Positions 3,798-35,714 are shown, counted from the stretch's first letter. The stretch: 64,000 bases of DNA from Candidatus Giovannonibacteria bacterium (GCA_016432405.1 CP066687.1:586629-650628), one strand, 5' to 3'. Notes: generated by a model from the letters alone, not told the origin. Numbers and translations: made by a program.

Positions 3798-4259
3798 ATG
3801 GAAACAATTACTATTGTTCTTTTGAGCGCCTTCGCTTACTTGGTAATCGGCTGCCGATTCGCCAAGTTTAACCAAGCACTGTGGAACGCGAAGATTTCCG
3901 GCTCTGGTTTTAATCCGAATGTGAACTTCTTTGGAGAAAAAACACACAAAATCTGTGAGAACCTGATGTTTATCTCGCTCTTCCCGGTGACAACATTCTT
4001 TGCCGCGATAAATCAGCTTGGCGCGAGCCCGCTCTCATTTTGGCGCCGCCATATGTGCGATAAGAAATACGATCGCGACCTCACTTTTGTAACGATTTTT
4101 TGGCCGGCAAAGCTTGTGTTGAACACGGCAACGATTACTATCTTGCTCGCCGTTATCGTACCAGCTATGTTTGTTGTCAGCATCATCTATTCCTCGCTTA
4201 CAATTTTCTCGGAAAAACCGATCGCCGAAGAAAAACCGAGAGAGGCCACTGCCAAGTAG
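3798..4259 (+). CDS. hypothetical membrane protein
   Basis: Strong RBS gaaaaggaggg before METITIV; multiple hydrophobic segments; no recognised family. Confidence 0.4.
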   Translation: METITIVLLSAFAYLVIGCRFAKFNQALWNAKISGSGFNPNVNFFGEKTHKICENLMFISLFPVTTFFAAINQLGASPLSFWRRHMCDKKYDRDLTFVTIFWPAKLVLNTATITILLAVIVPAMFVVSIIYSSLTIFSEKPIAEEKPREATAK

Positions 4260-9811: not shown

Positions 9812-10930
9812 TTAAAACTCCCTTAAGGCGAGGCCCACGGCGCTCGCGAAGGCCGCGCCAACTTCTTTTAACGCCGGCTCCAAAAATGCCGGATAAACAA
9901 CTTTTGAAAAGGGGTTCGCGACTAAAACTTCCACCCCGAATTTTTTTACAAACACATCCCCCACCCCCTTAAGCATTGCTCCTCCGCCCCCCAAAACCAC
10001 TTTGGACACCGCCCGGCCGCCGCGCCTTTTCCAATCCAGCAAAAACCTTTCGCCCTCGGAAGCCCAAAGCTCAACTAAGGGCTCAATCACCGAGGCCACG
10101 CCTTCCGTCTCCGGCCGGCGGATTACTCCGCTTTCCCTTTTTAAAATCTCCGCTCTCTCCCAATCCACCCCCAAGGACTGCGAAAGCGCCAAGGTAAGCT
10201 CCTGCGAGCCGCGGTCAAAGCTGTGCGAAGCCCTTACCACTCCGCCGTCGGCGATTGTCATCTTCACCGAAGAAGCGCCTATATCCATCAAAAGCACCGC
10301 CCCGAAATCGCGCTTTAAAGCCGCGCGGGCGAAAGAAAACACTTCTATCTCAAAGGCGACCGCGGCGAATCCTGCGCCGTCAAAAATGCCTTTGTATTTC
10401 AAAATCGTTTCTTTGGGCACGGCAGCCAAAAGCACTTTGTGGAATTTTCTTTTTCCGGAGCCGATTGAAGTTTCGGAGGCCTCTCTGCTCTCCGGCGGCA
10501 AAATCCACCAATCCATTATCACTTCGCTTACAGGTATGGGAATATATTTCCGCGCTTCGTACGGCACGGCTTCTTTCATATTTTCCTCGCTCATCTCCGG
10601 CAAATCCATTGAGGTGAGAAAGCTGTCTTTTAAAGGAATGGAAACAATGGCCGCCTTGGCGCTCACTTGTGACTCCCGCGCGATGTCTTTGAGCGCCTCG
10701 GTAAGCTTGGTGTCAATAAGCCGAACCGACCGGCTGACGTTGCCGTCGCCGTATTTAGCAAGCGACAGCTCTCCATAGGTCTCCAGAATCGCGCGTTCAC
10801 GCTCCTTCCGAAGCTGAACGAGCTTAATGGAAGACGTTCCGATATCTACGCCCAAGAACCGGCTTTCACGCTTAAAAAGCTGGGATGGGTTTTTTAGGCC
10901 AAACTTTTCCAATAGCGACGCGAAATCCAT
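9812..10930 (-). CDS. pilM: type IV pilus assembly ATPase-like protein PilM
   Basis: Actin/FtsA-like fold signature FLGVDIGTSSIKLVQL near N-terminus; ~370 aa. Confidence 0.75.
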   Translation of the reverse strand: MDFASLLEKFGLKNPSQLFKRESRFLGVDIGTSSIKLVQLRKERERAILETYGELSLAKYGDGNVSRSVRLIDTKLTEALKDIARESQVSAKAAIVSIPLKDSFLTSMDLPEMSEENMKEAVPYEARKYIPIPVSEVIMDWWILPPESREASETSIGSGKRKFHKVLLAAVPKETILKYKGIFDGAGFAAVAFEIEVFSFARAALKRDFGAVLLMDIGASSVKMTIADGGVVRASHSFDRGSQELTLALSQSLGVDWERAEILKRESGVIRRPETEGVASVIEPLVELWASEGERFLLDWKRRGGRAVSKVVLGGGGAMLKGVGDVFVKKFGVEVLVANPFSKVVYPAFLEPALKEVGAAFASAVGLALREF

Positions 10931-10967
10931 TGCTCATAATTCTAGCATCTGATTTAATAATACCACA

Positions 10968-11729
10968 ATGAACGGCTTCCGTGAAAGGATTATCCACACA
11001 TCCCGCCTCATCGGCGGGCGGGTTTTAGACCTCTTTTTCCCCCAAAAATGCGTTTCCTGCTCCAAGCCCGGCGAGACATTGTGCGCCGCCTGCCGCAGCG
11101 CGCTCTTCAGGCCCGGCGGGCAGTGCTTAGTATGCGGGTTCAGGAATAACGACGGAAAAATTTGCCGCGAGCACCGCCTGGGGAAGTTAAAGATTCTTTG
11201 GGCCGGGAGATACGACGGCGCGCTCAAAGACGCGGTCTGGAATTTAAAATATAAAAACAGAAAAGCGCTGGCGGAGCCGCTTGCCAAGATGCTTTTTCAA
11301 AAATTCTCCGAGATGTTTCCGACTGCCTTGCCAAGTCAAGGCGGGGATTTCAAAAACGAAAATTTTATAATCGTCCCTGTCCCGCTCCACAAAAACAAAT
11401 TGCGCCGGCGGGGATTCAACCAAGCCGAGCTTTTGGCCCGCGGGTTTTCAAAACTTTCCAATATCCAACTCCTAACCGGCTCACTTCTAAAAATAAAAGA
11501 AACCCCCGCGCAGGTGGATGTCCAAAACAGAGAAACGAGATTAAAAAATCTGGATGGGGCGTTTTCGGCAGATTCTGAAAAACTTACGGCTTACGGCGTA
11601 GGGCATAAAGCAATTATTTTAATTGACGACGTTTCAACCACCGGCGCGACTCTAATCCATGCTTCAGCCGCGCTTCAGCGCGCAGGCGCCCAAAAAATAA
11701 TCGGGCTTGTTGCTGCGCACGGGGGGTAG
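10968..11729 (+). CDS. comF: ComF family protein (double zinc ribbon + phosphoribosyltransferase domain)
   Basis: CVSCSKPGETLCAACRS...CLVCGF zinc ribbon, then a PRTase motif IILIDDVSTTGATL. Confidence 0.75.
   Translation: MNGFRERIIHTSRLIGGRVLDLFFPQKCVSCSKPGETLCAACRSALFRPGGQCLVCGFRNNDGKICREHRLGKLKILWAGRYDGALKDAVWNLKYKNRKALAEPLAKMLFQKFSEMFPTALPSQGGDFKNENFIIVPVPLHKNKLRRRGFNQAELLARGFSKLSNIQLLTGSLLKIKETPAQVDVQNRETRLKNLDGAFSADSEKLTAYGVGHKAIILIDDVSTTGATLIHASAALQRAGAQKIIGLVAAHGG
11700..11729. repeat. direct repeat copy 1 (comF 3' end atcgggcttgttgctgcgcacggggggtag)
   Basis: 23/23 identical plus 5/7 following nt to copy at 12572-12601. Confidence 0.8.
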
Positions 11730-14831: not shown

Positions 14832-16949
14832 ATGGATTTGGCCACTCCTCTTGAGCAAATTTTTAAGCAACTGACGCCGAGGCAGAAAGCGGCGCTGAAA
14901 AACTTGGGGTTAAAAACGGTTCGCGATCTTTTGTACCATTTCCCCTACCGCTATGAAAATCCGGCGGATTTAAAAAAAATCGGCGAAGTTTTTGAGGGCG
15001 AAAAAGTGCGCATTTGGGGGCGCGTTAAAAAAATTGACTACGAAAAAACCTGGAAGAAAAAACTGAACATCGCCTACGCCACGGTTGAAGACCCGACCGG
15101 GCGGATTAGGATTGTCTGGTTCCGCCAGCCCTACATCGCTAAAATGCTCCCGGAGGGGGCTTGCGCCATTTTTTCCGGAAAAGTAGCGATGCGCGGGCAG
15201 GAAAAATATATCGCCAACCCGCTTTATGATATCGTCCCCTGTAGCGTGATACCGGCTTTTTCACGCGAGGATGCCGCAAAACTCCAGCCACTTTACCCCG
15301 CCACGGCGGGACTTTCCTCCCTTTGGATATCCAAGGCGATTTCAAGAATACTGCCCAAAATTGATGTCACCGAATTTTTGCCCAGAGAAATTGTCGGGAA
15401 ATACCATCTGCCGGAATTAAATACCGCGCTCCGCTGGGCGCATTTCCCAAAAACTGAAGACCACGCCTCGGCCGCGAAAAAACGCTTCGCGTTTGAAGAA
15501 GTTTTTTTGATGCAGCTCCTCCGAATGTCGCAAAAAGAGGAAATCAAAAAGGCCTCGGGCATAAAACTCACGGATATTGACTCTCTAAAAGACGAATTTA
15601 TTAAACTATTGCCTTTCGGGCTGACCGGCGCGCAAAAAAAAGCGGTTGAAGAAGTTTTAAAGGACTTAAAATCCGGCCATCCCATGAACCGGCTTTTGGA
15701 AGGCGATGTGGGAAGCGGCAAAACAGCCGTCGCCGGCTGCGCCGCCTACATCATCGCTAAAAATGGCATGCAGGCGACTTATATGGCGCCGACGGAAATT
15801 TTGGCGAGGCAGCATTTTGAAACCTTTTATAAATTGCTCACGGGCATGGGAACAAAAATCGGGCTTTTGACTTCATCCATCTCCGAAAAATTCCCTTCAA
15901 AAATAAATCTGAAGCTCTCCACGCACGTCTCCAAAAGCCAGCTTTTAAAATGGGTTCGCGAGGGCGAGATCCAAATTTTAATCGGCACGCATTCGCTCAT
16001 TGAAAAAAGCGTCGTGTTTAAAAAGCTGGGGCTCGCGATGGTTGACGAACAGCACCGGTTCGGCGTCATGCAGCGCTCGCGGCTTTTTAAAAAGTCTTCT
16101 TTAGCCCCTCATTTTTTGACTATGACCGCGACCCCGATCCCCAGAACGCTGGCTCTTACAATCTACGCTGATTTGGATGTTTCTTTAATTGATGAAATGC
16201 CCGCAGACAGAAAGCCGATTGAGACAAAAATTGTCCCGCCAAAAGAAAGAAATTTGGCGTATGAGTTTATAAGAAGCAAACTTGCCGAAGGCGGCCAGGC
16301 GTTTGTGATTTGCCCAAGAATTGAACCAAAAGACCCAAGCAAAGAAGGATGGATTAAAGCAGAGATGAAATCCGTTAAAGAAGAATATAAAAAACTGAAA
16401 GAAAAAATCTTTCCGGAGCTTGAAATCGGAATCATGCACGGTAAGCTCACTCCCAAAGAAAAAGAGGGAACCATGCGAAAGTTCCGTGAAGGAAAAATTA
16501 AAATCTTGGTTTCCACTTCCGTGGTTGAGGTCGGAGTAGACGTTCCCAACGCGACAATAATGCTCATTGAGGGCGCGGAGAGGTTCGGCCTTGCCCAGCT
16601 TCACCAATTTCGCGGAAGAGTGGGGAGAGGCGAAAAAAAATCTTACTGCTTTATTTTGGCCGGGAGTTATTCGGCCAATATTTTCAGGCGCTTAAAAGCG
16701 CTCACAACCGCCAAAACCGGGTTTGAACTCGCCGAATACGATCTGGAATTCCGCGGTGCCGGCGAGCTTGCGGGACATCGCCAATGGGGCATCTCCGACA
16801 TTGGGATGGAGGCCTTGCGGAATTTAAAAATGGTGGAAGCCGCCCGCACAGAAGCCCGCGCGATTATTGAAGAAAGGGCTTTAGAAAAATATCCGCTTTT
16901 ACAGGAAAAAATAAGGCGGCTCCAGACAGAACCGCTGCATTTTGAATAA
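14832..16949 (+). CDS. recG: ATP-dependent DNA helicase RecG
   Basis: 705 aa; wedge-domain N-terminus, helicase motifs GDVGSGKT and DEQHRFGV, C-terminal RecG-type helicase domain. Confidence 0.85.
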   Translation: MDLATPLEQIFKQLTPRQKAALKNLGLKTVRDLLYHFPYRYENPADLKKIGEVFEGEKVRIWGRVKKIDYEKTWKKKLNIAYATVEDPTGRIRIVWFRQPYIAKMLPEGACAIFSGKVAMRGQEKYIANPLYDIVPCSVIPAFSREDAAKLQPLYPATAGLSSLWISKAISRILPKIDVTEFLPREIVGKYHLPELNTALRWAHFPKTEDHASAAKKRFAFEEVFLMQLLRMSQKEEIKKASGIKLTDIDSLKDEFIKLLPFGLTGAQKKAVEEVLKDLKSGHPMNRLLEGDVGSGKTAVAGCAAYIIAKNGMQATYMAPTEILARQHFETFYKLLTGMGTKIGLLTSSISEKFPSKINLKLSTHVSKSQLLKWVREGEIQILIGTHSLIEKSVVFKKLGLAMVDEQHRFGVMQRSRLFKKSSLAPHFLTMTATPIPRTLALTIYADLDVSLIDEMPADRKPIETKIVPPKERNLAYEFIRSKLAEGGQAFVICPRIEPKDPSKEGWIKAEMKSVKEEYKKLKEKIFPELEIGIMHGKLTPKEKEGTMRKFREGKIKILVSTSVVEVGVDVPNATIMLIEGAERFGLAQLHQFRGRVGRGEKKSYCFILAGSYSANIFRRLKALTTAKTGFELAEYDLEFRGAGELAGHRQWGISDIGMEALRNLKMVEAARTEARAIIEERALEKYPLLQEKIRRLQTEPLHFE

Positions 16950-16951
16950 AA

Positions 16952-18511
16952 TTATTTCCTGTGTTTCGGGGTTATCCAAAAACCCATATATTTGCCGAGC
17001 ATGAGGCGGGTCTGGGCGTCTAATGCGGGAATCGCGCCGAAGGCGATGATGGTAAACGGCACCAAAATCCATTGTAAAACCATGCTCATCGTCCGCAATT
17101 TTCCATAATGCGGCGGGCGCGGAGGCAGAAGCTGCATTGAAATTATCGCTGAAGTAACCAGCCCCACCATCGCGAAAGTCATAATCGTGCGGGTGATTGT
17201 CGGCAGATTGTACGCCAAAACCAAAGTGTTAAATTCCCTTCCCCCCAAAAACACCGGGAGCCATCCTAAAGCAAAAAGCAAAAGCGCGTTCGTGGACCAG
17301 GACCAGTATCCCTCAACCATATTAAAAATATAATATGCCTTGGTACGGAAAGGGATTTTTTTATTCTTCAAAAATCCGAAGGCGACGTAAGGGAAATTCT
17401 CCACACCCCACGCCCAGCGCCTTTGCTGGCGGTAAACGTTTTTTACGGTGCGCCAAAAAGTCGGCGCCAAATTCGCGTCCATAGAAACCGGGTAAGAAAG
17501 CGGGATGGATTCGTATCGGCCGTCATAGAAAAGAAGTGAATTCCAGAAAATCCGCGAATCCTCGGATACGATATTTGTCTGCCAAAAATCCAAATCGACA
17601 AGCGTTTTAAAGCTCATGGAGTGCGATGAAAAGGTGACCATGCGCTCCGGCCGTTCCTGCTGCATCATCTGCCAGAAAGTGCCAGATGTCGCGACAACCC
17701 GAGAGAGCGCCGGCGCGGCCCAGATGTTATTGTTGAAAACCGGCACTGGCTGATAGGAGGCCTGTACCGGATTTTTTGCGGCAAGAAAATGCCAGGCGAG
17801 ACACTCAAAATACTGCGGATAAATCTGCGTGTCTATGTCAAAGGAAGATACAATTATGTTTTCGTAAGGGATTTTTCGCGGGTCTATAAAAATCCTTTTT
17901 GCTTCCCTGGCCGCCCAGGTTTCATTCCCCCCTTTGCCCGGTATCTCGCCCTCCAGGCCCGCGGAATGCATTGTTGAGAAAATATTGGGCAGCGAGCTGC
18001 CGAATTCAGCCAAAATTTTCTCCGCCACTTCCCTGCCGTGCCCGCCGTACCGCTCCTCGTAAGAGAGCGCGATTATCATCCTCTCCTTTGGCCAGGCACT
18101 TTTCAAAATCGCCTCAACGGAGCTTTTTACCACTTCGCGGGATTCGTTGGCCATCGGGAAAACAACCAAGTGCCAGACATGTTCCGCGCGTAAGCGGCGC
18201 AATCTTTCCGCCCAGTCAGTCCCGAGGTGCATTTTCATCCTCCCGGCGTTTGCCCGCAGATGCAGCGACAAAAAAACGGTTTTCACAAGCCAGTAAAGGT
18301 CAAAAATAATTATAAAAAAGGCGGCATAGACCGGAATAAAATAAGAAGCCAAAAACATTCCCGAAAGCGTCCCCCACGCTAAAGCCCCCGGAAAGATTTC
18401 CAGCGCGCGGTAAATCAGCCGGTCCCTTCCCGCGAGTTCCGGCGAGAACGCTATTTTCAGATAAGATTTTTTATTTTCCATTATGAAATTAAGAATATCA
18501 AAAAACAACAA
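16952..18511 (-). CDS. membrane glycosyltransferase, family 2 processive type (QxxRW)
   Basis: QQRRWAWG motif characteristic of processive GT2 synthases; multiple TM helices at both ends. Confidence 0.6.
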   Translation of the reverse strand: MLFFDILNFIMENKKSYLKIAFSPELAGRDRLIYRALEIFPGALAWGTLSGMFLASYFIPVYAAFFIIIFDLYWLVKTVFLSLHLRANAGRMKMHLGTDWAERLRRLRAEHVWHLVVFPMANESREVVKSSVEAILKSAWPKERMIIALSYEERYGGHGREVAEKILAEFGSSLPNIFSTMHSAGLEGEIPGKGGNETWAAREAKRIFIDPRKIPYENIIVSSFDIDTQIYPQYFECLAWHFLAAKNPVQASYQPVPVFNNNIWAAPALSRVVATSGTFWQMMQQERPERMVTFSSHSMSFKTLVDLDFWQTNIVSEDSRIFWNSLLFYDGRYESIPLSYPVSMDANLAPTFWRTVKNVYRQQRRWAWGVENFPYVAFGFLKNKKIPFRTKAYYIFNMVEGYWSWSTNALLLFALGWLPVFLGGREFNTLVLAYNLPTITRTIMTFAMVGLVTSAIISMQLLPPRPPHYGKLRTMSMVLQWILVPFTIIAFGAIPALDAQTRLMLGKYMGFWITPKHRK

Positions 18512-18537
18512 AATAAAAAGCCCGACTTGCGCCGGGG

Positions 18538-19065
18538 CTACTGCAAAAAAGCTATGCGCGGCAGCTCAACTTTTCCGTTCGCCACCTCTTCGGGAAGAGC
18601 GACTGAAGCAGTCAAAACCTGTTCGTTTTTGTAGATTACTTCAATCTTGGAAGATTCCCTCAACTTTAGATCGGCGCGGAGCATGGCGTCTCTCCGAAAC
18701 ATATCTTCTATTAAAAGAATCCGCTCCCAGGGATATTTTCCGTAATCGTAAAACATTTCTATTTTTTCCGCGCCTGTTTGCTGGATGCCGCTCCATGACC
18801 CTTTTCTGCCGGAAACTTTTCTTCGCACTAATTTTAGAAGACTGTCGTGCAAAAAATTAATCTGGAACTCCGGACCTTCCAAAACTATGGCCGGCCAAGA
18901 ATCAAACACATCTACCGGCGACAAAACGACGACGGGGCTTCCGGGAAAAACATCTTTGAGCACAACGCGCTGGTCATCGGCAAAACCTAAAAATGGCCTT
19001 GAAGCAAATATTCCGCGTTTTCTGTTTTTAAAAAGCTCGTCCAAATACGTTTTGTCAAAAGCCAT
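18538..19065 (-). CDS. hypothetical protein
   Basis: ORF with typical coding composition; no recognised domain. Confidence 0.4.
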   Translation of the reverse strand: MAFDKTYLDELFKNRKRGIFASRPFLGFADDQRVVLKDVFPGSPVVVLSPVDVFDSWPAIVLEGPEFQINFLHDSLLKLVRRKVSGRKGSWSGIQQTGAEKIEMFYDYGKYPWERILLIEDMFRRDAMLRADLKLRESSKIEVIYKNEQVLTASVALPEEVANGKVELPRIAFLQ

Positions 19066-19161
19066 ATTATGCCCCCTTCAATCTCCAAAATCTAATTATG
19101 AAACTATCACATGTAATAAAAAATAAAAAGGGTTGGTGATAACGCCAACCCATTACACAGC

Positions 19162-19653
19162 TCAAGAAAAAGCAAAAGAGAAATGGAGCTGCCTGTTTTC
19201 CTCAAGGCACCAAGATTCAGGTATATCCTGTTGGGATTCCCCCAAATCATAAAAATGAGGCAGCCACCTTTCTATAAGTTCTCGCAATGGATCGTCCTCT
19301 GCTAAATCATCGGCCTCTATCCCACCTCCATTAAGCGCCTCCTCCAGTTGATCTTGAAATTTGCCATAGTGTATGCACATATCAAACTCTTCTTCGTCAA
19401 TTGCATCGGTTAGAAGACGCCAATCTCCATCGCAGCGGAGGCATAATTTAAAATCTAAAAATCCGTTCCAAAATCTGCCTTTCCAATATATATACTTCTG
19501 GCCCGGCGCTATCGCCTCGTGGCACTCGCCGCATTCATGTTCTTTTCTGGCTGTCCTTGTTTTAATATCGTAAAATTCCGGCGGATCGCACCCATTACAC
19601 ATATACATATAAAGGTTCCTCCTATACAAAGTATACAATTCCCATATTTGCAA
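19162..19653 (-). CDS. hypothetical Cys-rich (zinc-ribbon-like) protein
   Basis: CNGC...CGEC...CLRC pattern; hairpin terminator gggttgg-N8-ccaaccc downstream on minus strand at ~19105-19140. Confidence 0.4.
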   Translation of the reverse strand: MQIWELYTLYRRNLYMYMCNGCDPPEFYDIKTRTARKEHECGECHEAIAPGQKYIYWKGRFWNGFLDFKLCLRCDGDWRLLTDAIDEEEFDMCIHYGKFQDQLEEALNGGGIEADDLAEDDPLRELIERWLPHFYDLGESQQDIPESWCLEENRQLHFSFAFS

Positions 19654-19697
19654 GTAAACATCAATGGCAAAAAAGGAGTATTATAAGTATAAGCGCT

Positions 19698-20240
19698 ATG
19701 GAGAAAATAAGGGAAAATGAGGACGAAATTTTGGTAAAAAAGGCCCAGGAGAGCCCCGAGGCCTATGAAGCGCTTTACAAAAAATACGGCAAGCGCGTTT
19801 ACGATTATTTCTGGTACCGCGCGGGACGGATAAAAGAAGTAGCCGAGGACTTGGCGCAGGAAACTTTTATAAAAGCGTTCCAAAAACTCCCAAAATTCCG
19901 CCTGCGCGCCTATTCCTATTTTTCCTATCTTAAAACCGTCGCCCACAATACGCTCGTAAAATATTATAAAAAACCGAAAGACGTATCGCTTGAGAGTCTG
20001 GACGGGGAAATTGCGGGCGAGTCGCCAATTACCAAGCTTGAGGAAGCCGGGGAAGCGAGGATTCTTTTGGAAAACATGGCCCGCCTCCCCAAATCGGAGA
20101 AAAAGATAATGCTTTTAAGATACGGGTGGGAGCTTTCAATAAAAGAAATAGCCCAAAAGACCGGCAAGAGCGAAAACGCGGTAAAGCTGGTCATTTCGCG
20201 GGCTAGGAAGAAAATTGCCGGAAAAATCGGGAATAAATGA
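19698..20240 (+). CDS. RNA polymerase sigma factor, ECF (sigma-24) subfamily
   Basis: Region 2-like AQETFIKAFQKL and region 4 HTH LLRYGWELSIKEIAQKTGKSENAVKLVISRARKKI. Confidence 0.75.
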   Translation: MEKIRENEDEILVKKAQESPEAYEALYKKYGKRVYDYFWYRAGRIKEVAEDLAQETFIKAFQKLPKFRLRAYSYFSYLKTVAHNTLVKYYKKPKDVSLESLDGEIAGESPITKLEEAGEARILLENMARLPKSEKKIMLLRYGWELSIKEIAQKTGKSENAVKLVISRARKKIAGKIGNK

Positions 20241-20446
20241 CACCTTTTCGCCCCCCGGGGGTTATATATAGTGAAGACCTGCAAATTAACAATTTAATAC
20301 GAACCGTAAATAAAAAGCGCCCAACCGGACACTTTATCATGTGAGATTCGCATCCCGCTCGCCTAAGGGGAAAACTGGCCTGTCGGCTTAAGCATCCTTC
20401 AAGGCAAAAAACAAACGCACAAACCCTCCAATTTTCATACACCCAT

Positions 20447-20494
20447 CGGAGGGTTTTTGAGTTTTAGAGAATTACTCTATGCGAGCGGTGTTTT
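20447..20494. repeat. island direct repeat A (cggagggtttttgagttttagagaattactctatgcgagcggtgtttt)
   Basis: Aligns with 24279-24331; includes the last codons (PLA*) of the 931-aa gene and a ccctcc/ggaggg hairpin. Confidence 0.7.
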
Positions 20495-23272
20495 AATCAT
20501 TGATATTATTGAATCAATTTGCTCTCTCAATGTTTTATCTCTAGTTATTCCATCACTGATTTTCTCAAAAGCATAAAGCACAGTCGTATGATCCAGCCCA
20601 AATATCCTTCCAATGGAAGGGAAAGATAAACCTATCATCGTTCGAATAAGATACATGGCGATTTGTCTTGCATGGGCAATTGTGCCTTTTCGTGTCCTTT
20701 TCTTTATTTCTACCAAGCTAAGATTGTAGAATTGAGCAACCGACGCAACAATTTTTTTAGCAGTGAAATTTATTTCTTTCTCTCTTTCTTTAATATAATC
20801 TCTTGGATCTTCATCAGAGTAATAGTACTCACCATATTTTTTAGCAAGAGCTTTGTTAACTATTTGGCGAACGCGCTCCCGAGTAATCTCAAATCTTTGC
20901 GCAATCTCTTCCAAAGTGTGCGGTCTTTGATCATTAAGACCAAATCGCATTTCAACCATTTGTTTTTCTCGGTCCTCCATTCCCTCAACAAGGTCTTTAT
21001 CGCCAAGAGTTTGTCCCTGTTTTGCTTCTTCAAGTTGTTTTTCTCGTCTTGTTTCCCATGCCAACGGCTCTTCCACAAAATGGTCATAAATTCCTGGCCC
21101 AACCTCAAACTTCTTTTGAGCAATGTATACAGGGATATCGATAGCAGGTCCGTAATTTTGTGGAATAGCACCTTTTTGATAAGCTTCCGGGATCATTGCT
21201 CCTAGCGATTCGCTTAAAATAAGCTCCGCCAAATATAGTTGCGCTTCACGAGATTTCTCTACATCGCGCTTTTGTGGATTATCCCCAAAATAATATCTGT
21301 TGATGGGGTGATTCGAGTTGATAAGTATAAAGCCCTGAGTGGGACTTCCTAGCATTGGGTCGTAAGTGGTCTGTAGATGTTTTGGCACCCCATCATCAAA
21401 GTCCCAATCCTTAAATTTACCAGTCGGGCCGGTTGGCGAAGGTTTGATGCGATCCTTAATATCTATCCGGCATTGCGCCGAATAATCCTCAAAATTTGCC
21501 TTAACAATACCAGATTCATCATTCTTTTTGCCCACAAAAGGCACTTCAATTTTTGCCACTTGACTTGTGCTACGCATTCGGCGCGGCACCACGACCCATC
21601 TGTATTTTAGGGCTATTGAGTTGTTGGAACTTGAAAGAGAGATTTTTTTGCCGATCTTTATAACATTCAAATCAACATAAAGATTCAATGTGCTTTCTCT
21701 ATTCGCTGTAGTTCTTATGTAATCTGGACTAAAAACAATACCGTTTTCTGGATACACTATCTCCTCGGACACAATAGAAACCACCACCGAAGCGCTACGT
21801 TTTCCACTTTTTGCTTCTAATGTATCGGCAGTCCTCGCATTCGCACCAGTAACAATGATGGTCTTCACGAGGATGTCATTGCTATCCTCCGGTGCGTCGT
21901 GGACCTCAATTGTAGTCGGCGAAAAACCTATTTTACCTCTTGAAGATTTAAGAGATATTTTAGAACTGGGCTTGATAATTCGGGTATCAATGAATAGTTG
22001 TAGGCCATAGCGCCTTCCTGCAGTGATAGTTATGTTACTCCTAGCAAACTCAATACCTCCAACAGGGCGCGCCTTTTTCTTTATACGGATAACGCCGTTT
22101 GTATCTTCCCCAGTAAGTTGAGCATACAACTTGTTAAGTTCTTCAAGGGCCTTACGGTGATTCTCTTTTGTTATTTCGGAAACACCCTCGTCGGACCTTC
22201 TACGTCTTTCTTCATTGAGAATTGGGTATAACCAATCTTTCACTTCTAAGGCAAGTTTTTTGTAGAAGTCATGTTGGGTATTAAATCCATCCCGAGAATC
22301 GGAAAGTATCGCTTCGGGATGTTTCGGATCATTGATTTTATTGAGAATGATTTCTCTTGCTCCAGTCAGTTTCATGAAGCCGAAAAATTTGTCTGCACCC
22401 GGTAAGCTATCCCAACCGAAAAATGTTTGGGCGTATACGGCTTCTTTATTATCATGAACCAACAAGCCGTTTTCTCTTTCGTCTCCGACGATTTGAAGCG
22501 GCGTAGAAGATTTGTACAGTTCAACATCAATTTTCACGGGGTTATATTTCTCGAATTGCAAAGTAAATTCCTTATGCTCAACCAAATCACCCTTCGGAAA
22601 TTGATATCTAATAACACTTTTTTTAGTGCCTTTCTGGTCCTTGTAAATTAACTGGACCGAGCGTCTATCACTTGAGTTGATAAGGCGAAGCATGAAGAAA
22701 ACACCCACCTTTTTTATTAAGTTGTCATAGTCGTGTATGGTGGTATTATCAAGTACAAATTCGGCAACCGTTCCATGTTTGCTGTTTATACCCCATTCCT
22801 TAGCTAGTTTTTCTGCTAGCTCTTTTTGTTTTTCAACACTAATAAATGGTCTTTCTTTTTTCCAGTAGAAGTTGCAAATGGAGGCTTCGCCGTCCTTGAC
22901 AGATTTTATTTTCCCCTCGCGGTGGTAGAAAAGGACATCCGAAATACCTTGGCCAAAAATTCCTCTCGAACTAAAGCCTTCATAGGCCCCGCTCTTTGCT
23001 GCTCCATATTCTTTAAATTTCTCCTCTAGTTCAGCGGTAGTCATTCCTTGGGCATGGTCTGTTATACGGACTAATCTTTTCGTCTTATCAATAAAAATAG
23101 TAATCGGGAACACCTCTCCGCCATCGTCTTGGCTCGATTCAATTATTTTCCTGTAGCTATCATCGGAATTGGTAATTGGTTCTGTTAGGGTTTTCAGCAA
23201 GCTTTTCCCGACAGCATCCGAAAATTGCCGTTTTATATACCGTGAAGCATATTGTACTGCGATTTCGGTCAT
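20477..23272 (-). CDS. multidomain protein: N-terminal GHKL-type ATPase, central unknown, sigma-70 region-4-like HTH, C-terminal DnaA domain-IV-like DNA-binding domain
   Basis: Motifs read in translation: EPITNSDDS (N-box-like), DHAQGM (G1-like), GIFGQGISD (G2-like); EDREKQMVEMRFGLNDQRPHTLEEIAQRFEITRERVRQIVNKALAKK; SLVEIKKRTRKGTIAHARQIAMYLIRTMIGLSFPSIGRIFGLDHTTVLYAFEKI. Confidence 0.6.
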   Translation of the reverse strand: MTEIAVQYASRYIKRQFSDAVGKSLLKTLTEPITNSDDSYRKIIESSQDDGGEVFPITIFIDKTKRLVRITDHAQGMTTAELEEKFKEYGAAKSGAYEGFSSRGIFGQGISDVLFYHREGKIKSVKDGEASICNFYWKKERPFISVEKQKELAEKLAKEWGINSKHGTVAEFVLDNTTIHDYDNLIKKVGVFFMLRLINSSDRRSVQLIYKDQKGTKKSVIRYQFPKGDLVEHKEFTLQFEKYNPVKIDVELYKSSTPLQIVGDERENGLLVHDNKEAVYAQTFFGWDSLPGADKFFGFMKLTGAREIILNKINDPKHPEAILSDSRDGFNTQHDFYKKLALEVKDWLYPILNEERRRRSDEGVSEITKENHRKALEELNKLYAQLTGEDTNGVIRIKKKARPVGGIEFARSNITITAGRRYGLQLFIDTRIIKPSSKISLKSSRGKIGFSPTTIEVHDAPEDSNDILVKTIIVTGANARTADTLEAKSGKRSASVVVSIVSEEIVYPENGIVFSPDYIRTTANRESTLNLYVDLNVIKIGKKISLSSSNNSIALKYRWVVVPRRMRSTSQVAKIEVPFVGKKNDESGIVKANFEDYSAQCRIDIKDRIKPSPTGPTGKFKDWDFDDGVPKHLQTTYDPMLGSPTQGFILINSNHPINRYYFGDNPQKRDVEKSREAQLYLAELILSESLGAMIPEAYQKGAIPQNYGPAIDIPVYIAQKKFEVGPGIYDHFVEEPLAWETRREKQLEEAKQGQTLGDKDLVEGMEDREKQMVEMRFGLNDQRPHTLEEIAQRFEITRERVRQIVNKALAKKYGEYYYSDEDPRDYIKEREKEINFTAKKIVASVAQFYNLSLVEIKKRTRKGTIAHARQIAMYLIRTMIGLSFPSIGRIFGLDHTTVLYAFEKISDGITRDKTLREQIDSIISMIKTPLA

Positions 23273-23278
23273 ATCAGT

Positions 23279-23935
23279 TTAAAAAAGTAGGTTGCTAAAC
23301 TTTTTCTCAAGCCAAGACAAAAATTCCAACACCTCTTTATCTTTTGTCGTTGTGGCAGAAACTTTAAGTCGTTTCAAGTGTTCAGCCAAAAGCTGCTTTG
23401 GCGTATATGGTGCAGCTTTCAAGAAAGCAAAAAATTCATAATTATTGACTTCCTCATTTGCGAACCACTTCTTAAAAGCTTCTGATACTCGTATTTCTCG
23501 TATATCATCACCGGGGGACTTTCCTCTTGATTTGCTAACTATAATGGGCTTGCGGTCCTTTCTCGGTAAAGGATTCTTCAGTGAACCGGAAACTTGTTTT
23601 GCCATTTCGCGTCCCAAGTCAGTCAGATGAAAGCCGTTTTCAATATTACCTGTTGCCCAATGTTTTCTCTTTTGGTCAGTCAAGCGCCGTAGTGCTTTAC
23701 TGATTCGGTTAGTATCTGGATATTGAATAAAGTTAGCCATTGAAAACTTTCTAGGAAACAATCTGAATAAACCGACAGCAATAAAATCAAAATAGAGGGG
23801 TATCTTCTTTCCTTCAAGCGCGTAAAGCGTATAAACCACTAGACGGTCTAAATCAAAACTATCGTAGTTCACGAAAGGAAAATGTTTTACCCCAAGCAAC
23901 ACCCTTTTTATATTTATACCGTTTTGATTTTTCAT
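23279..23935 (-). CDS. hypothetical protein (operon partner)
   Basis: 6-nt gap to downstream 931-aa gene; no recognised domain. Confidence 0.4.
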   Translation of the reverse strand: MKNQNGINIKRVLLGVKHFPFVNYDSFDLDRLVVYTLYALEGKKIPLYFDFIAVGLFRLFPRKFSMANFIQYPDTNRISKALRRLTDQKRKHWATGNIENGFHLTDLGREMAKQVSGSLKNPLPRKDRKPIIVSKSRGKSPGDDIREIRVSEAFKKWFANEEVNNYEFFAFLKAAPYTPKQLLAEHLKRLKVSATTTKDKEVLEFLSWLEKKFSNLLF

Positions 23936-24156
23936 AATTTAAATTCTTTATTTTTAGGAAAGTGAAATTTTGCTTTGGTCTCGCGGACTCGGCGCTCAAT
24001 TTCGGAAAATATTTTGTTCACCTCTTCTTCGGTGTATTCATACGCACTTCTGTTAGAACAATTACCTAAAACTTTAAGTCTTTGAAGGACTGAATTTGTT
24101 CTTTGCGTCCCTAAGCGCTTAAACCTTTCCCGTTTTTGCTCACGATTATTGTCCAT
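23932..24156 (-). CDS. hypothetical small basic protein (operon first gene)
   Basis: Start overlaps next gene by 4 nt; Lys/Arg-rich; DnaA-box-like tgtggataa in its upstream region. Confidence 0.35.
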   Translation of the reverse strand: MDNNREQKRERFKRLGTQRTNSVLQRLKVLGNCSNRSAYEYTEEEVNKIFSEIERRVRETKAKFHFPKNKEFKL

Positions 24157-24278
24157 AGCTATTATTATAGCTTATTGTATAAATACTCACAATAGTTATA
24201 AGGATAGTCCACCCTTATTAAAAAGTCAATACCCCCTACTGTGGATAAGATTCTTAACCAAAAACCCCTCCCGCAATG

Positions 24279-24331
24279 CGGGAGGGGTTTTGAGTTTTAA
24301 AAAATCCTTTTATGCGAGCGGCTGTGGTTTT
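24279..24331. repeat. island direct repeat B (remnant gene 3' end ...KPQPLA* + perfect hairpin cccctcccgc-aat-gcgggagggg)
   Basis: Aligns with repeat A; lies immediately 3' of tRNA-Ile. Confidence 0.7.
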
Positions 24332-24338
24332 CACTTTT

Positions 24339-24412
24339 TGGGCCAGGATGGATTCGAACCATCGCTCCCCGTCTTATAAGGACGGTGCTTTAAACCGCTA
24401 AGCTACTGGCCC
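24339..24412 (-). tRNA. tRNA-Ile (anticodon TAT)
   Basis: Manual fold: acceptor gggccag/ctggccc, D-stem gctt/aagc, anticodon loop cuUAUaa, T-arm gatgg-ttcgaat-ccatc. Confidence 0.65.
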
Positions 24413-25076
24413 TTTTTGAAAAATAATCGCGAATAACTTCTAGACCCATAAAAATCCTTTTTGCCAACTTAGCATCTCCAATTATAACATTACAAGTGCC
24501 ATGGCCGAATCCCCCTTTATAAGTTAAAGAACTGCGTTTAGTTTTCTTGATATAAGGTTTTGTAAACTGCGAGAAAGGAATTTTAAGTTCTTCGGACCAA
24601 AATTTAATCTCTCCCCGAACATTCATATCTTCATAAAGATGCAATTTAATTCGCAGCTTGTTTTTTGGGACATTTAAGATTTTCGTAAGCCAATGTATAA
24701 ATATTTTTAAAATTGCAGGATCAGTATTTGATAATGAAAGTTCATACTCCTTTGTTTTACCTCCCTCTCCAAGATATAGAAATAGTCCGCCTATAAATAT
24801 TTCTTGTTGAGATAGAGGTAAAATTATATTTTTTTCCTTAATATATATTTCCCTTAAAATGTTCTCTCGTTTTCTCCGGCGAGTTTCAATGTAATGTTCT
24901 ATCCTCGCTTGATTCCAATCCCTTAATTCCCGAATCCTTTTCACAGACAAAGGATGGTTTCTAAGCCAGTAGCTAAGGGTGGATTTGCTCACTCCCAACA
25001 CTTTCTTAATTTGGGCGTAGCTTTGTCCTAATTTGCGTAAACGCAGGGCTTTTTGCCTTTCTTTTATTTTCGCCAT
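24390..25076 (-). CDS. HTH-containing protein, possibly degenerate LAGLIDADG-type endonuclease
   Basis: N-terminal HTH QSYAQIKKVLGVSKSTLSYWLRN; GLFLYLGEGGK resembles a LAGLIDADG motif; 3' end overlaps tRNA-Ile 5' region; AT-rich. Confidence 0.35.
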   Translation of the reverse strand: MAKIKERQKALRLRKLGQSYAQIKKVLGVSKSTLSYWLRNHPLSVKRIRELRDWNQARIEHYIETRRRKRENILREIYIKEKNIILPLSQQEIFIGGLFLYLGEGGKTKEYELSLSNTDPAILKIFIHWLTKILNVPKNKLRIKLHLYEDMNVRGEIKFWSEELKIPFSQFTKPYIKKTKRSSLTYKGGFGHGTCNVIIGDAKLAKRIFMGLEVIRDYFSKRASSLAV

Positions 25077-35047: not shown

Positions 35048-35131
35048 GCCTAGGTGGCGGAATCGGTATACGCGAAGGTCTCAAAAACCTTTGGGCGCAA
35101 GCCCTTGGGAGTTCGAGTCTCCCCCTAGGCA
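35048..35131 (+). tRNA. tRNA-Leu (anticodon CAA)
   Basis: Manual fold: acceptor gcctagg/cctaggc, anticodon loop cuCAAaa, long variable arm tgggcgcaagccc, T-arm gggag-ttcgagt-ctccc. Confidence 0.8.
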
Positions 35132-35132
35132 T

Positions 35133-35714
35133 TTGGAAAAGAGATTAAGCAAAAATAAAAAATTAAAAGCATACGTTGTAGGCCTAGCTCTTGGCGACGG
35201 CAATCTTTCCAATCCCAATGGACGGGCTGTAAGATTGCGTATAACTTGCGACAAGAAATACCCAAACCTTATACAGAATATTTATAGTTCTGTTCAAAAA
35301 CTTTTTCCAGACAATAAAGTCGCGGTCGTTAATCATAAAAGATACATAGATATAAGTTGTTATTCCAATAAATTAGAATCTATTTTGGGATGGAAAGCTA
35401 AGGGCGGATCAAAATATAAACAAAACGTTTCTATTCCCCATTGGATAAAGCTTAATAAAATATTTGCGAGAGAATGCCTTAGAGGATTGCTTCAAACAGA
35501 CGGATCTATTTATCGCGACCGCGGATATCTTATGGTAAATTTTGTAAATCACACACCGGCCTTATCAAGAGATGTTTTTTTATTGATGCAAAAATTGGGA
35601 TTTAAGCCCAATATCCAGAAATTGAGAAATAAAAACGGCTCAACAAAACATACTATCAGAATATCAAAAGATACAGAAAGATTTATAAACATAATAAAGC
35701 TTTCGAAAAGCTAG
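35133..35714 (+). CDS. LAGLIDADG-family homing endonuclease
   Basis: Two motifs YVVGLALGDGNL and LRGLLQTDGSIY; track ORF begins inside the tRNA, so real start lies after 35131 (possibly TTG at 35133). Confidence 0.55.
   Translation: MEKRLSKNKKLKAYVVGLALGDGNLSNPNGRAVRLRITCDKKYPNLIQNIYSSVQKLFPDNKVAVVNHKRYIDISCYSNKLESILGWKAKGGSKYKQNVSIPHWIKLNKIFARECLRGLLQTDGSIYRDRGYLMVNFVNHTPALSRDVFLLMQKLGFKPNIQKLRNKNGSTKHTIRISKDTERFINIIKLSKS

Follow-up and report, generated by a model that had tools for sequence, protein, structure and literature searches.

How a 3.8-kb block of 40% GC came to lie between 41-nt direct repeats, beside a tRNA-Ile gene and in surroundings of 47.5% GC, is the question raised by this locus of a Candidatus Giovannonibacteria genome, which we analysed in a 64-kb window (the whole stretch of DNA examined). 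The original prediction, of an island-like block bounded by imperfect direct repeats at tRNA-Ile, was confirmed: the repeats (41 nt, 83% identical) bracket a block of low GC. The block is a three-gene cassette without a recombinase and of unassigned function, located directly 3' of a core tRNA-Ile gene and flanked by two related terminator hairpins. The inserted block beside the tRNA therefore stands, and what we have revised is its interpretation as a footprint of site-specific integration with a remnant C-terminus in the repeat next to the tRNA. We suggest, with about even confidence, that the cassette was acquired without an integrase in a tRNA-adjacent hotspot and that the tRNA terminator was duplicated at the junction; the mechanism is offered as a proposal only. 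The elements at the two junctions are as follows.

24390..25076, minus strand: HTH228, a helix-turn-helix protein of 228 aa (Pfam HTH_23), syntenic core gene between ftsH and tRNA-Ile
24339..24412, minus strand: tRNA-Ile(UAU), anticodon TAT (ARAGORN; Rfam tRNA, 72.5 bits)
24281..24321, minus strand: direct repeat copy B, 5' junction, made up of the 5' arm of hairpin B and 22 nt that lie outside the hairpin
24261..24291, minus strand: hairpin B, AAAACCCCTCCCGC-ATT-GCGGGAGGGGTTTT and then a U tract (inverted repeat I4)
20448..20488, minus strand: direct repeat copy A, 3' junction, covering the last four G931 codons, the stop codon and the 5' arm of hairpin A
20421..20456, minus strand: hairpin A, AAACCCTCCGAT-loop-ATTGGAGGGTTT and then GUGCGUUUGUUUUUUG (inverted repeat I10)
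20300..20420, minus strand: 3' flank of about 100 nt with a second terminator-like hairpin (20314-20335) at its end, kept in locus L004

The repeat finder reported a single family (20448-20488 and 24281-24321) with 34/41 positions (83%) identical and a start-to-start distance of 3833, and a MAFFT alignment of both copies agrees with it. The 19-nt core, GGAGGGKTTTTGAGTTTTA, has two sites only in the 64 kb when up to three mismatches are allowed (0.10 expected), and gapped local alignment of the junction regions scores 59, against a mean of 24.0 (sd 3.8) and a maximum of 36 for shuffles. A generic terminator family, which had been named as a possible refutation, was looked for across these 64 kb, with the two copies as the only finds. 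The likeness extends through the 3' arm of each hairpin, and the loops differ. Hairpins had been predicted at both copies and both are present as inverted repeats and on RNA folding: hairpin B (-37.7 kcal/mol, z-score -6.9) probably ends the HTH/tRNA-Ile transcript as its intrinsic terminator, and hairpin A (-26.5 kcal/mol, z-score -2.5) probably terminates the cassette operon. The 931-aa ORF (20477-23272, minus strand) does end in KTPLA-stop within copy A, as had been proposed. L004 shares its 3' junction with the window and carries a homologous repeat element; because that element is outside the ORF, 30 nt past the stop codon (its protein ends IKT-stop), the PLA-stop tail of G931 in the window would have arisen secondarily, by reading through into a terminator module that is itself non-coding. 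The 3' flank matches no Rfam family, and its conservation in L004 suggests either a part of the common junction or a small transcript.

The tRNA-Ile(UAU) gene is a core gene that marks an insertion hotspot and is outside the insert. It is present in 77/80 ftsH-centred loci of related genomes, ftsH-(HTH)-tRNA-Ile synteny likewise being kept in 77/80, and HTH228 has orthologues (47-57% identical) directly after ftsH in L009, L012, L019, L031, L033, L034, L036, L050 and L062. The interval first proposed, 20447-25076, must accordingly be shortened at its right boundary, which takes in this core tRNA and HTH gene. A search of related genomes for an empty site had been proposed, and L008 and L009 have one: there the glycosyltransferase-recG (GT-recG) genes come directly after the tRNA, within at most 29 nt; other, unrelated operons occupy the site in L006 (PrkA-DUF444-SpoVR) and L007 (proteasome/Pup ligase). 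DNA absent from related genomes is exactly bracketed by the direct repeats, on the evidence of distant relatives only. The comparison genomes are distant (FtsH 70-78% identical) because no empty site was available from a close relative, one more than 85% identical in core genes, and other routes of synteny loss remain compatible with the empty sites at that distance. Ten contigs of the same population yielded neither an excision product nor an empty site. We consider the insertion to be probably old, since a relative about 81% identical in DNA has the same 3' junction, which fits the 17% divergence of the repeat copies. On the left, DNA that is lineage-specific relative to L009 reaches further, to 18512, and takes in an ECF sigma gene and two small ORFs.

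18538..20240, no strand assigned: lineage-specific block between the cassette and GT519-recG (h175, h163 and an ECF-type sigma factor)
18538-19065, minus strand: h175
19162-19653, minus strand: h163
19698-20240, plus strand: ECF-type sigma factor (Pfam sigma domains)

This block has an intermediate GC content (0.438), is missing at this position in L006-L009 and has no homologues in L006-L085. For the cassette itself, the AT-richness that had been noted by eye is borne out by computation (GC 0.399 vs 0.475 in the rest of the window). Low GC persists as far as about 25100, through the tRNA and HTH228 (0.351); both belong to the syntenic core, and the extent of the insert therefore cannot be read from GC alone.

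Within the bracketed block, h74, h218 and G931 appear to form a conserved operon with its own promoter.

24240..24248, minus strand: perfect DnaA box TTATCCACA; the cassette promoter's -35 hexamer follows 10 nt downstream
24164..24229, minus strand: predicted cassette promoter region, TTGACT-17-TATCCT and TTGTGA-17-TATAAT
23932..24156, minus strand: h74, small basic protein of 74 aa, cassette gene 1, no family match
23279..23935, minus strand: h218, 218 aa, cassette gene 2, 111 homologues
20477..23272, minus strand: G931, 931 aa, GHKL ATPase with sigma-70 region 4 and DnaA domain IV as a C-terminal fusion

Perfect DnaA boxes number four in the window (0.21 expected); the box-N10-TTGACT arrangement recurs in L118, and in L111 and L121 there are DnaA boxes close to the promoter. 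A palindrome, ATAAGGGTGGACTATCCTTAT (24198-24218), overlies the first -10 element, and related AAGGRTA...TAYCCTT palindromes take the equivalent position in other loci. In every locus compared, h74 is the first of the trio. Several h218 homologues are on the same contigs as homologues of the 931-aa protein, with the trio co-linear. The AlphaFold2 (AF2) model of h218 (pLDDT 87.7) gave weak DtxR/IdeR/MntR-type matches only in Foldseek (E >= 0.014) and no recombinase fold, and so the model bears at most a weak resemblance to winged-helix repressors.

G931 consists of a GHKL ATPase and transducer (about residues 1-400), a beta-rich part whose fold is unassigned (400-650), sigma-70 region 4 (760-812) and DnaA domain IV (826-927). 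Pfam reports PF08299 (9.7e-23), PF04545 (2.7e-13) and PF13589 (4.4e-4), the DnaA domain (Bac_DnaA_C, PF08299) scoring 80.4 bits against a cut-off of 31.5; an NCBIfam search supports the assignment, and the PDB sequence matches are DnaA (chains at about 5e-13) and sigma-A. HATPase_c_3 reaches 20.7 bits on G931 (cut-off 25) and is listed for several homologues. The AF2 model (pLDDT 79.5) and its top Foldseek matches (Hsp90/GRP94/GyrB/ParE, about 1e-11) give the fold as GHKL plus transducer, as in Hsp90 and GyrB. E31, N35, D72, G76 and G104-G109 are invariant in the homologue alignment, and we take these residues to be the GHKL ATP-binding motifs.

The absence of an integrase or recombinase inside the cassette had been noted beforehand and agrees with searches of Pfam, NCBIfam, PHROGs and PADLOC, together with AlphaFold2 and Foldseek for the 218-aa and 931-aa proteins, neither of which has a recombinase-like fold. 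Pfam found no recombinase or transposase family among the three cassette proteins, the neighbouring ORFs and 20 further mid-sized ORFs of the window. The cassette has no recombinase of its own and is not autonomous. Comparison of the window's flanks for terminal inverted repeats gave, besides the hairpins, a single inverted match, 17 nt at 82% (I21), and there is neither a terminal inverted repeat plus short target-site duplication nor, among the ORFs scanned, a transposase gene, as a transposon would have. To our knowledge, a direct repeat of 41-56 nt far exceeds known target-site duplications in length. Nor does the block look like an integron gene cassette, a lone promoterless ORF with an attC site at its end, arrayed beside an integron integrase: it is a three-gene operon with promoter-like sites of its own and no integrase nearby. 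As for the features of an island, the bracketed DNA is absent in relatives and its base composition is deviant, and it lacks a recombinase gene and repeats containing the 3' part of the tRNA.

The cassette was found in about 20 other Patescibacteria contexts, among unrelated neighbourhoods, with the order of the trio kept in every locus with enough sequence (40-89% identity). DNA homology to 14 other copies ends at about 24100 and 20500, and in the window these boundaries coincide with the repeats. A tRNA lies at most 700 nt upstream in 6/20 independent loci (binomial P about 4e-4), a seventh, L128, having been found later, and the tRNAs near cassette copies are of seven different kinds. In GC-richer hosts the cassette is lower in GC than its flanks. 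Copies 80-85% identical in protein occur in MAGs labelled Giovannonibacteria, Sungbacteria and Nealsonbacteria, and one copy is 79.5% identical in DNA over 3.6 kb; between the window and a Sungiibacteriota genome, FtsH identity is only 71%. The family does not generally have direct repeats at its flanks: about 11/21 loci have none, in two the "repeats" are paralogous tRNAs or gene ends, and about six have inverted repeats instead. A duplicated tRNA-Gln terminator stands at both outer ends in L089/L106. In L089/L106, L005, L086, L119 and L136, the cassette lies between inverted copies of a GC-rich repeat of about 250-290 nt, which those genomes also carry away from the cassette; the element is not found at the cassette of the window, which has direct terminator repeats.

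We suggest that a self-contained trio (h74, h218 and G931) with its own promoter would have been acquired horizontally, into a lineage-variable hotspot directly downstream of tRNA-Ile(UAU). Both repeat copies would be homologous versions of a single non-coding module, in which 22 nt are joined to an intrinsic terminator hairpin; at one junction it now ends the HTH/tRNA-Ile transcript, at the other the cassette operon. No more than about 10-20 nt separate either copy from the conserved block, so that the 3833-bp repeat unit is made up of the cassette and a single junction, the geometry expected where insertion duplicates its target. The likeliest route, we infer, would be a Campbell-type single crossover, in which the tRNA terminator recombined with a similar sequence carried by the incoming cassette in circular form, although no circular intermediate was observed; a recombinase provided in trans may have acted instead.

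The locus had been said to bear the classic footprint of site-specific integration, in which case the repeats would be attL and attR and a tyrosine or serine integrase would have been lost or, in a CIME-like manner, be encoded elsewhere and act in trans. Exact bracketing by direct repeats beside a tRNA, the enrichment of the cassette family beside tRNAs, and the duplicated tRNA-Ile 3' ends downstream of the gene in L007, L050 and L018, which indicate that integrases target tRNA-Ile in this clade, all speak for it. However, the 41-nt repeat includes nothing of the tRNA, whose 3' end lies 17 nt before it, and no tRNA-Ile fragment is found in 18000-24330 (the best local match scores 20, the shuffle mean being 20.7). 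Moreover, the copies are just 83% identical with no perfect core longer than 12 nt, no integrase or remnant occurs in the cassette, the 20 mid-sized ORFs or within 8 kb on either side of three other copies, and cassette copies at other sites have no common att-like end and mostly no direct repeats. We regard this explanation as unlikely. Copy B had also been read as a remnant C-terminus, which would make it the 3' end of an earlier G931-type gene, left by tandem duplication or by replacement of a resident cassette, with homologous recombination between paralogous ends. KPQPLA-stop in copy B does resemble KTPLA-stop in copy A, weak similarity continues for about 12 nt into the G931 coding sequence, and in L104/L112 the flanking repeats are indeed C-terminal ends of paralogous genes. 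Yet KPQPLA is just six in-frame codons between two stops, the remnant would need to stop 17 nt from the tRNA, no locus examined has a tandem cassette, and the non-coding position of the L004 element argues that the coding overlap of copy A is derived; we find the remnant improbable.

It is no more probable, in our judgement, that there is no insertion signature at all, the copies belonging to a genome-wide terminator or repeat family, or being homogenised by gene conversion, and the cassette being a vertically inherited accessory operon lost elsewhere. Copies A and B are both terminators, two other CCCTCC...GGAGGG hairpins occur in the window, an exact 11-nt CCGCTCGCATA common to both copies and missing from L004 hints at gene conversion, and cassettes of other genomes are flanked by the dispersed GC-rich repeat. 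Those two hairpins, however, match copies A and B only in the stem motif, while the copies also have the 22-nt non-hairpin part in common, a pattern found nowhere else in the 64 kb; simple vertical descent also fits poorly with the cassette's low GC, patchy distribution and changing contexts. An equally slim chance attaches to a self-mobilising element of a new kind, in which at least one of G931, h218 and h74 would catalyse or direct insertion beside tRNA genes and make long direct or inverted flanking repeats. This would account for the sharp conserved limits (from about -100 to -150 from the first ATG to the G931 stop codon, even in sub-lineages only 40-80% identical), the enrichment near tRNAs of seven kinds, the perfect inverted repeats of 30-340 nt that, in at least five loci, directly adjoin the stop codon, and the lack of any other mobility gene nearby. 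Against it, searches of the proteins gave no fold or motif of a nuclease, recombinase or transposase, the flanking repeats vary in both kind and sequence and are missing in half of the loci, and in one subfamily the inverted repeats turn out to be dispersed-repeat copies, a sign that mobilisation may occur in trans.

Integrase-less acquisition beside the tRNA, the reading we prefer, has partial parallels. CIMEs and integrase-less islets are small cargo between att direct repeats, without recombination genes and presumed to depend on trans functions; the att sites of CIMEs match those of a known cognate ICE integrase. The present cassette is likewise a small recombinase-less cargo block between direct repeats, but its repeats are just 83% identical and no cognate element or integrase is known for it. 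Composite units between two MITE-like repeats, such as integron mobilisation units, resemble the sister loci with inverted GC-rich repeats, whereas the window has direct terminator repeats and no target-site duplication or transposase was identified there. Similar in setting are tRNA-adjacent islands of streamlined genomes such as the Prochlorococcus islands fed by tycheposons, which are variable hotspots at a fixed place in a small genome, where the slot holds different cargo per lineage and older integrations leave remnants (bioRxiv 10.1101/2020.12.28.424599). Tycheposons carry tyrosine or serine integrases and their flanking repeats are partial tRNAs (bioRxiv 10.1101/2020.12.28.424599); the repeat of our cassette, in contrast, excludes the tRNA, and there is no integrase or integrase fragment.

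As to the cargo, neither the fusion of sigma-70 region 4 with DnaA domain IV nor the h74/h218 partners were found in the profile libraries or literature searched. Among the defence systems of PADLOC-DB v2, nothing matched h218 or h74, and G931 gave only a match of about 50 residues (761-811) to the sigma-70 region 4 segment of MzaA, the sigma-70-family protein of the MZA anti-phage system (NF041931, PDLC02203), at 52.9 bits against a cut-off of 800; the other Mza components are absent. The prokaryotic MORC/paraMORC GHKL ATPases (Iyer, Abhiman and Aravind 2008, PMC2292703) may be related to G931, which has an N-terminal GHKL domain plus transducer and a HATPase_c_3 match below the cut-off; its top fold matches are Hsp90 and GyrB, not MORC or MutL. 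ATPases of the MORC/paraMORC type belong to restriction-modification and conflict systems (PMC2292703), and a distant homologue pair lies beside DndB-like, methylase and Mrr genes, one neighbourhood that hints at a defence role. The sigma-4 and DnaA-IV tail of G931 may autoregulate the operon through the predicted DnaA box-N10-(-35) site. We suggest that the cargo resembles a GHKL ATPase system directed at DNA, either of the conflict/defence or of the chromosome-regulatory type.

We conclude that the locus is best explained by a cassette without an integrase that was acquired horizontally, long ago, at a tRNA-Ile hotspot, with the terminator module of the tRNA duplicated at the junctions. The cassette consists of three minus-strand genes (h74, h218 and G931) just downstream of tRNA-Ile(UAU), with the following features.

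Genes of the cassette and domains of G931
23932-24156, minus strand: h74, the first gene; no family match
23279-23935, minus strand: h218, the second gene
20477-23272, minus strand: G931, the third gene
G931 residues about 1-400: GHKL ATPase and transducer
G931 residues 400-650: beta-rich region, fold unknown
G931 residues 760-812: sigma-70 region 4
G931 residues 826-927: DnaA domain IV

G931 (931 aa) is identical to an NCBI entry labelled Candidatus Giovannonibacteria (Patescibacteria/CPR MAG). It has Pfam matches to PF08299 (9.7e-23), PF04545 (2.7e-13) and PF13589 (4.4e-4) and NCBIfam matches to DnaA, RpoD and the sigma-4 part of MzaA; comparison with PDB sequences matched DnaA and sigma-A, and the best Foldseek matches of its AlphaFold2 model (pLDDT 79.5) are Hsp90, GRP94, GyrB and ParE (about 1e-11). 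Residues E31, N35, D72, G76 and G104-G109 are invariant across 30 homologues, and we read them as the GHKL ATP-binding motifs. The domain combination was not found in protein-family libraries or literature searches, and PADLOC recognises only the sigma-4 segment of the cassette. We considered h218 as a cryptic recombinase and rejected the idea: its model is confident (pLDDT 87.7), the resemblance to DtxR/IdeR/MntR-type winged-helix repressors is weak (E at least 0.014) and nothing else was matched. The original remark that no integrase is encoded inside the insert is borne out, as none of the three cassette proteins matches a recombinase, transposase or nuclease family.

The imperfect direct repeats said to bound the insert are real: copy A (20448-20488, at the G931 end) and copy B (24281-24321, on the tRNA side) each span 41 nt, share 83% identity and are spaced 3833 bp from each other. 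Their 19-nt core occurs at only 2 sites within the 64 kb (0.10 expected), and the gapped alignment of one junction with the other scores 59, compared with 24.0 ± 3.8 (maximum 36) for shuffles. Copy B begins 17 nt past the 3′ end of tRNA-Ile(TAT) (24339-24412, minus strand). On the minus (transcribed) strand, copy B forms a hairpin of -37.7 kcal/mol (z = -6.9) and copy A one of -26.5 kcal/mol (z = -2.5), each followed by a U tract; the repeat thus combines a terminator module with 22 nt outside the hairpin, and both copies are predicted to act as terminators now. The junctions match no known RNA family. Two further CCCTCC...GGAGGG hairpins in the window are unrelated outside the stem, and a generic terminator family within the window was rejected.

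The origin of the repeat is clarified by L004, a homologue locus with 81% DNA identity to the window and a 3′ flank in common. Its copy-A-like element (TCGTATAAAAATTTTTAACACTCAAAAACCCTCC...GGAGGG) lies 30 nt past the stop codon (...IKT*), which places the repeat beyond the coding region and makes it non-coding in origin. The suggestion that copy B is a remnant gene end is consequently unlikely; the PLA* tail of the window's G931 would instead reflect a deletion of about 30 nt that let the reading frame run on into the repeat. Against 14 other cassettes, DNA homology runs out within h74 (about 24100) on one side and 30 nt short of the stop (about 20500) on the other, and L004 alone continues to 20345, hence sharing the 3′ junction of the window. 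This common junction makes the insertion older than the split of the two lineages, a dating that would fit the 17% divergence of copies A and B. An exact 11-nt stretch, CCGCTCGCATA, is present in both window copies and absent from L004, which suggests that some later gene conversion may have taken place between the window copies. About 100 nt at 20300-20420 (minus strand), from the cassette terminator to a second terminator-like hairpin (20314-20335), are also conserved with L004 and are a candidate small transcript; the sole Rfam match there is insignificant (Phe_leader, E = 0.55). L004 is the public Logan contig ERR10900101. Its two ends (1-22 and 3872-3893) are copies of the SMART/template-switch adaptor AGTGGTATCAACGCAGAGTAC and hence not genomic sequence; the library was either contaminated with adaptor or made from cDNA.

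The site itself is a variable slot. A scan for FtsH in species-representative genomes yielded 80 Paceibacteria-type loci centred on ftsH, and tRNA-Ile(tat) is present in 77 of them. Many have an orthologue (220-230 aa) of HTH228, the 228-aa HTH gene, between ftsH and the tRNA, with the syntenic genes GT519 and recG further on. Only 29 nt separate the tRNA from the GT519 orthologue in L009 (Giovannonibacteria RIFCSPLOWO2_01_FULL_46_13), and in L008 the gap is 3 nt; both are empty sites. The slot holds a PrkA-DUF444-SpoVR operon in L006 (12837-17597) and an Mpa-like ATPase, two Pup-ligase-family genes and a proteasome subunit in L007 (4184-10258), both unusual cargo for CPR genomes. In the window its content is 5.8 kb, made up of the cassette, an ECF sigma gene and two small ORFs. 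The comparison with relatives found loci without the insert; since these relatives are distant (FtsH 70-78% identical), it shows a variable slot and not a precise empty-site allele. An excised form or empty site in the same population was also sought, and all 10 contigs with an identical G931 share its context. The 3′ end of tRNA-Ile is partially duplicated 80-140 nt downstream in L007 (3711-3830), L050 (4378-4490) and L018 (about 15500-15647), the classical footprint of an integrase, which indicates that integrative elements of the clade use this site. These duplicates resemble what is left of former att sites, or else a small element, palindromic in structure, that inserts in tRNA-like sequence; those of L007 and L050 are interrupted by one palindrome, GCCTGCCTGCCGG(C/T)AGGCAGG.

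The AT-richness noted by eye is confirmed by calculation (GC 0.399 for the cassette against 0.475 for the rest of the window), and the low-GC tract also spans the tRNA and the adjacent HTH228 (0.351). In the segment 24339-26975 the HTH ORF and the 5′ end of the tRNA have 23 nt in common (10 nt in L009), and the C-terminal two-thirds of the HTH protein has no family match. A second ORF abutting a tRNA gene in the window encodes a 207-aa LAGLIDADG_3 protein (35048-35714) and starts inside or directly after tRNA-Leu(CAA); a relationship of HTH228 to LAGLIDADG proteins was unsupported on comparison with this ORF and with PDB sequences. Beside the ECF sigma gene, h163 (19162-19653, minus strand, 163 aa) matches phrog_7314 (E = 1.5e-10), a phage protein family of unknown function, and this match hints that the sigma/h163/h175 block may be a separate acquired piece.

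Protein searches returned about 54 full-length homologues of G931, alike in architecture, and 111 homologues of h218; every one came from a Patescibacteria-type source. Wherever the locus sequence sufficed, the genes run in the order h74-h218-G931 (40-89% identity), and the neighbourhoods vary (rpsT/guaA, an ABC ATPase/YgjP-like gene, a T4SS pilin, FBPase and others). In GC-richer hosts the cassette has a lower GC content than its flank (0.352 vs 0.485, 0.408 vs 0.523 and 0.378 vs 0.464). Copies with 80-85% protein identity occur in MAGs labelled by their depositors Giovannonibacteria, Sungbacteria and Nealsonbacteria, and one cross-lineage copy has 79.5% DNA identity over 3.6 kb, yet the FtsH of the window and that of a Sungiibacteriota genome are no more than 71% identical. 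That the cassette copies are more alike than FtsH across lineages points to horizontal transfer, an argument that relies on the depositors' taxon labels. Carriage by a phage or plasmid was rejected, there being no homologue in IMG/VR, a phage collection or PLSDB, and none of three long contigs examined has an integrase within ±8 kb of the cassette.

Proximity to tRNA genes was scored as a tRNA gene at most 700 nt upstream of h74.

Loci with an upstream tRNA gene
Window: tRNA-Ile
L087: tRNA-Asn
L090/L125: tRNA-His
L105: tRNA-Gln, opposite strand
L111: tRNA-Gly
L119: tRNA-Thr
L128: tRNA-Arg

Six of 20 loci have such a tRNA (binomial P about 4e-4, taking one tRNA per 15 kb as the background rate and the loci as independent); L128 was found later. 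Downstream tRNAs lie near the cassette in L106 (Gln) and L128 (Arg). The cassette of L128 sits exactly between tRNA-Arg(CCG) and tRNA-Arg(GCG) (6852-6924 and 10921-10995, both on the opposite strand) and appears to have dropped into a tRNA pair. Repeats flank the cassette at many loci of the family, and they vary in kind.

Flanking repeats of the cassette
Direct, window: terminator module
Direct, L128: copies are the two tRNA-Arg genes
Direct, L104/L112: C-terminal ends of paralogous genes
Direct, L093: 29 nt
Inverted, L089/L106: about 340 nt, arms 96-100% identical
Inverted, L100: at least 101 nt, 100% identical
Inverted, L096: 171 nt, 89% identical
Inverted, L005, L137, L139: 30-45 nt, at contig ends
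Inverted, L110: offset similarity at contig ends, by eye and unscored
None detected: about 11 loci

Given such heterogeneous kinds (tRNA-Arg genes in L128, paralogous gene ends in L104), we rejected flanking repeats as a universal signature of the family. At the loci where both inner ends of the inverted repeats could be placed (L005, L089/L106, L100 and L139), one lies 3-5 nt past, or overlaps, the G931 stop and the other lies at about -100 to -150 relative to the start codon of h74. The many homologue contigs of 3.85-3.93 kb arise because contigs break inside these repeats, leaving terminal inverted repeats of 30-45 nt; they lack direct terminal overlap, and a circular or plasmid form was rejected. 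One subfamily has as its inverted repeats a GC-rich, highly self-complementary element of about 250-290 nt.

Positions of the GC-rich repeat
L089: 243-597
L106: 3935-4284 and 8206-8404
L119: 1475-1745
L086: 3473-3747
L136: 3402-3660

Perfect inverted copies surround the cassette in several genomes, and the element also occurs away from it (L106, 8206-8404). It is absent from the window and matches no Rfam family; a structured RNA or an element of MITE type are both conceivable. At its outer edges, the L089/L106 structure has a repeat of the tRNA-Gln terminator together with the last 5 nt of the tRNA, which parallels the recurrence of the tRNA-Ile terminator module at the far end of the window's cassette.

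How the cassette entered the slot can be weighed on these observations. Site-specific integration at the tRNA, as originally proposed, accounts for a tRNA-adjacent insert bracketed by direct repeats, but the classical model of an integrase with att in the tRNA fails in two defining features, as the cassette encodes no integrase and tRNA sequence is missing from the repeat; nor does a tRNA fragment that might serve as a hidden att site occur between 18000 and 24330 of the window. The cassette may be a self-mobilising element, for which its sharp boundaries, tRNA preference and perfect inverted repeats speak; however, we looked in its proteins for a catalytic domain for DNA breakage and joining and detected none. 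We consider it rather unlikely that the trio is an undescribed mobile module of Patescibacteria, one that lacks a recognisable recombinase, favours tRNA genes whatever their identity, uses its own GHKL-ATPase and DNA-binding proteins or hijacks host recombination, leaves long direct or perfect inverted repeats abutting the G931 stop, and reads -35 elements and DnaA boxes with its sigma-4 and DnaA-IV tail. For the favoured horizontal insertion with a duplicated terminator module, the duplication would have arisen either from one crossover between homologous terminators, involving a circularised fragment, or through a recombinase acting in trans.

Upstream of h74 are promoter-like hexamers (TTGACT-17-TATCCT), with a palindrome (24198-24218) over the -10 element, and a perfect DnaA box, TTATCCACA (24240-24248, minus strand), exactly 10 nt upstream of the -35 TTGACT. 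This DnaA box-N10-(-35) site (24224-24248, minus strand) thus precedes an operon that closes with G931, the protein with sigma region 4 and then DnaA domain IV at its C-terminus. The spacing recurs in L118, boxes lie near the promoter in L111 and L121, and L104/L112 have a degenerate box, TTATTTACA. Autoregulation of the operon through the tandem sigma-4 and DnaA-IV domains at this putative bipartite site is possible and would fit the arrangement. We infer that the cargo is a DNA-targeted GHKL ATPase system. A distant pair of h218-like and GHKL genes, without the sigma-4/DnaA-IV tail, adjoins DndB-like, N6/N4 methylase and Mrr genes, a neighbourhood of the kind described for prokaryotic MORC/paraMORC ATPases (PMC2292703).

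Gene exchange is poorly understood in candidate-phyla-radiation bacteria, whose genomes are tiny and hold few recognisable mobile elements. The locus shows that insertions have a conserved hotspot downstream of ftsH-tRNA-Ile(UAU), and it presents a compact cassette, devoid of recombinase genes, that is spread over many genomes and tends to lie next to tRNA genes, as well as an uncharacterised protein in which a GHKL ATPase is joined to sigma region 4 and DnaA domain IV. If the cassette serves in defence or in replication control, a tail that reads DnaA boxes would suggest that its target is an unusual one; if its spread depends on its own proteins or on a specific partner in trans, that would be a new way in which genes move in these organisms.
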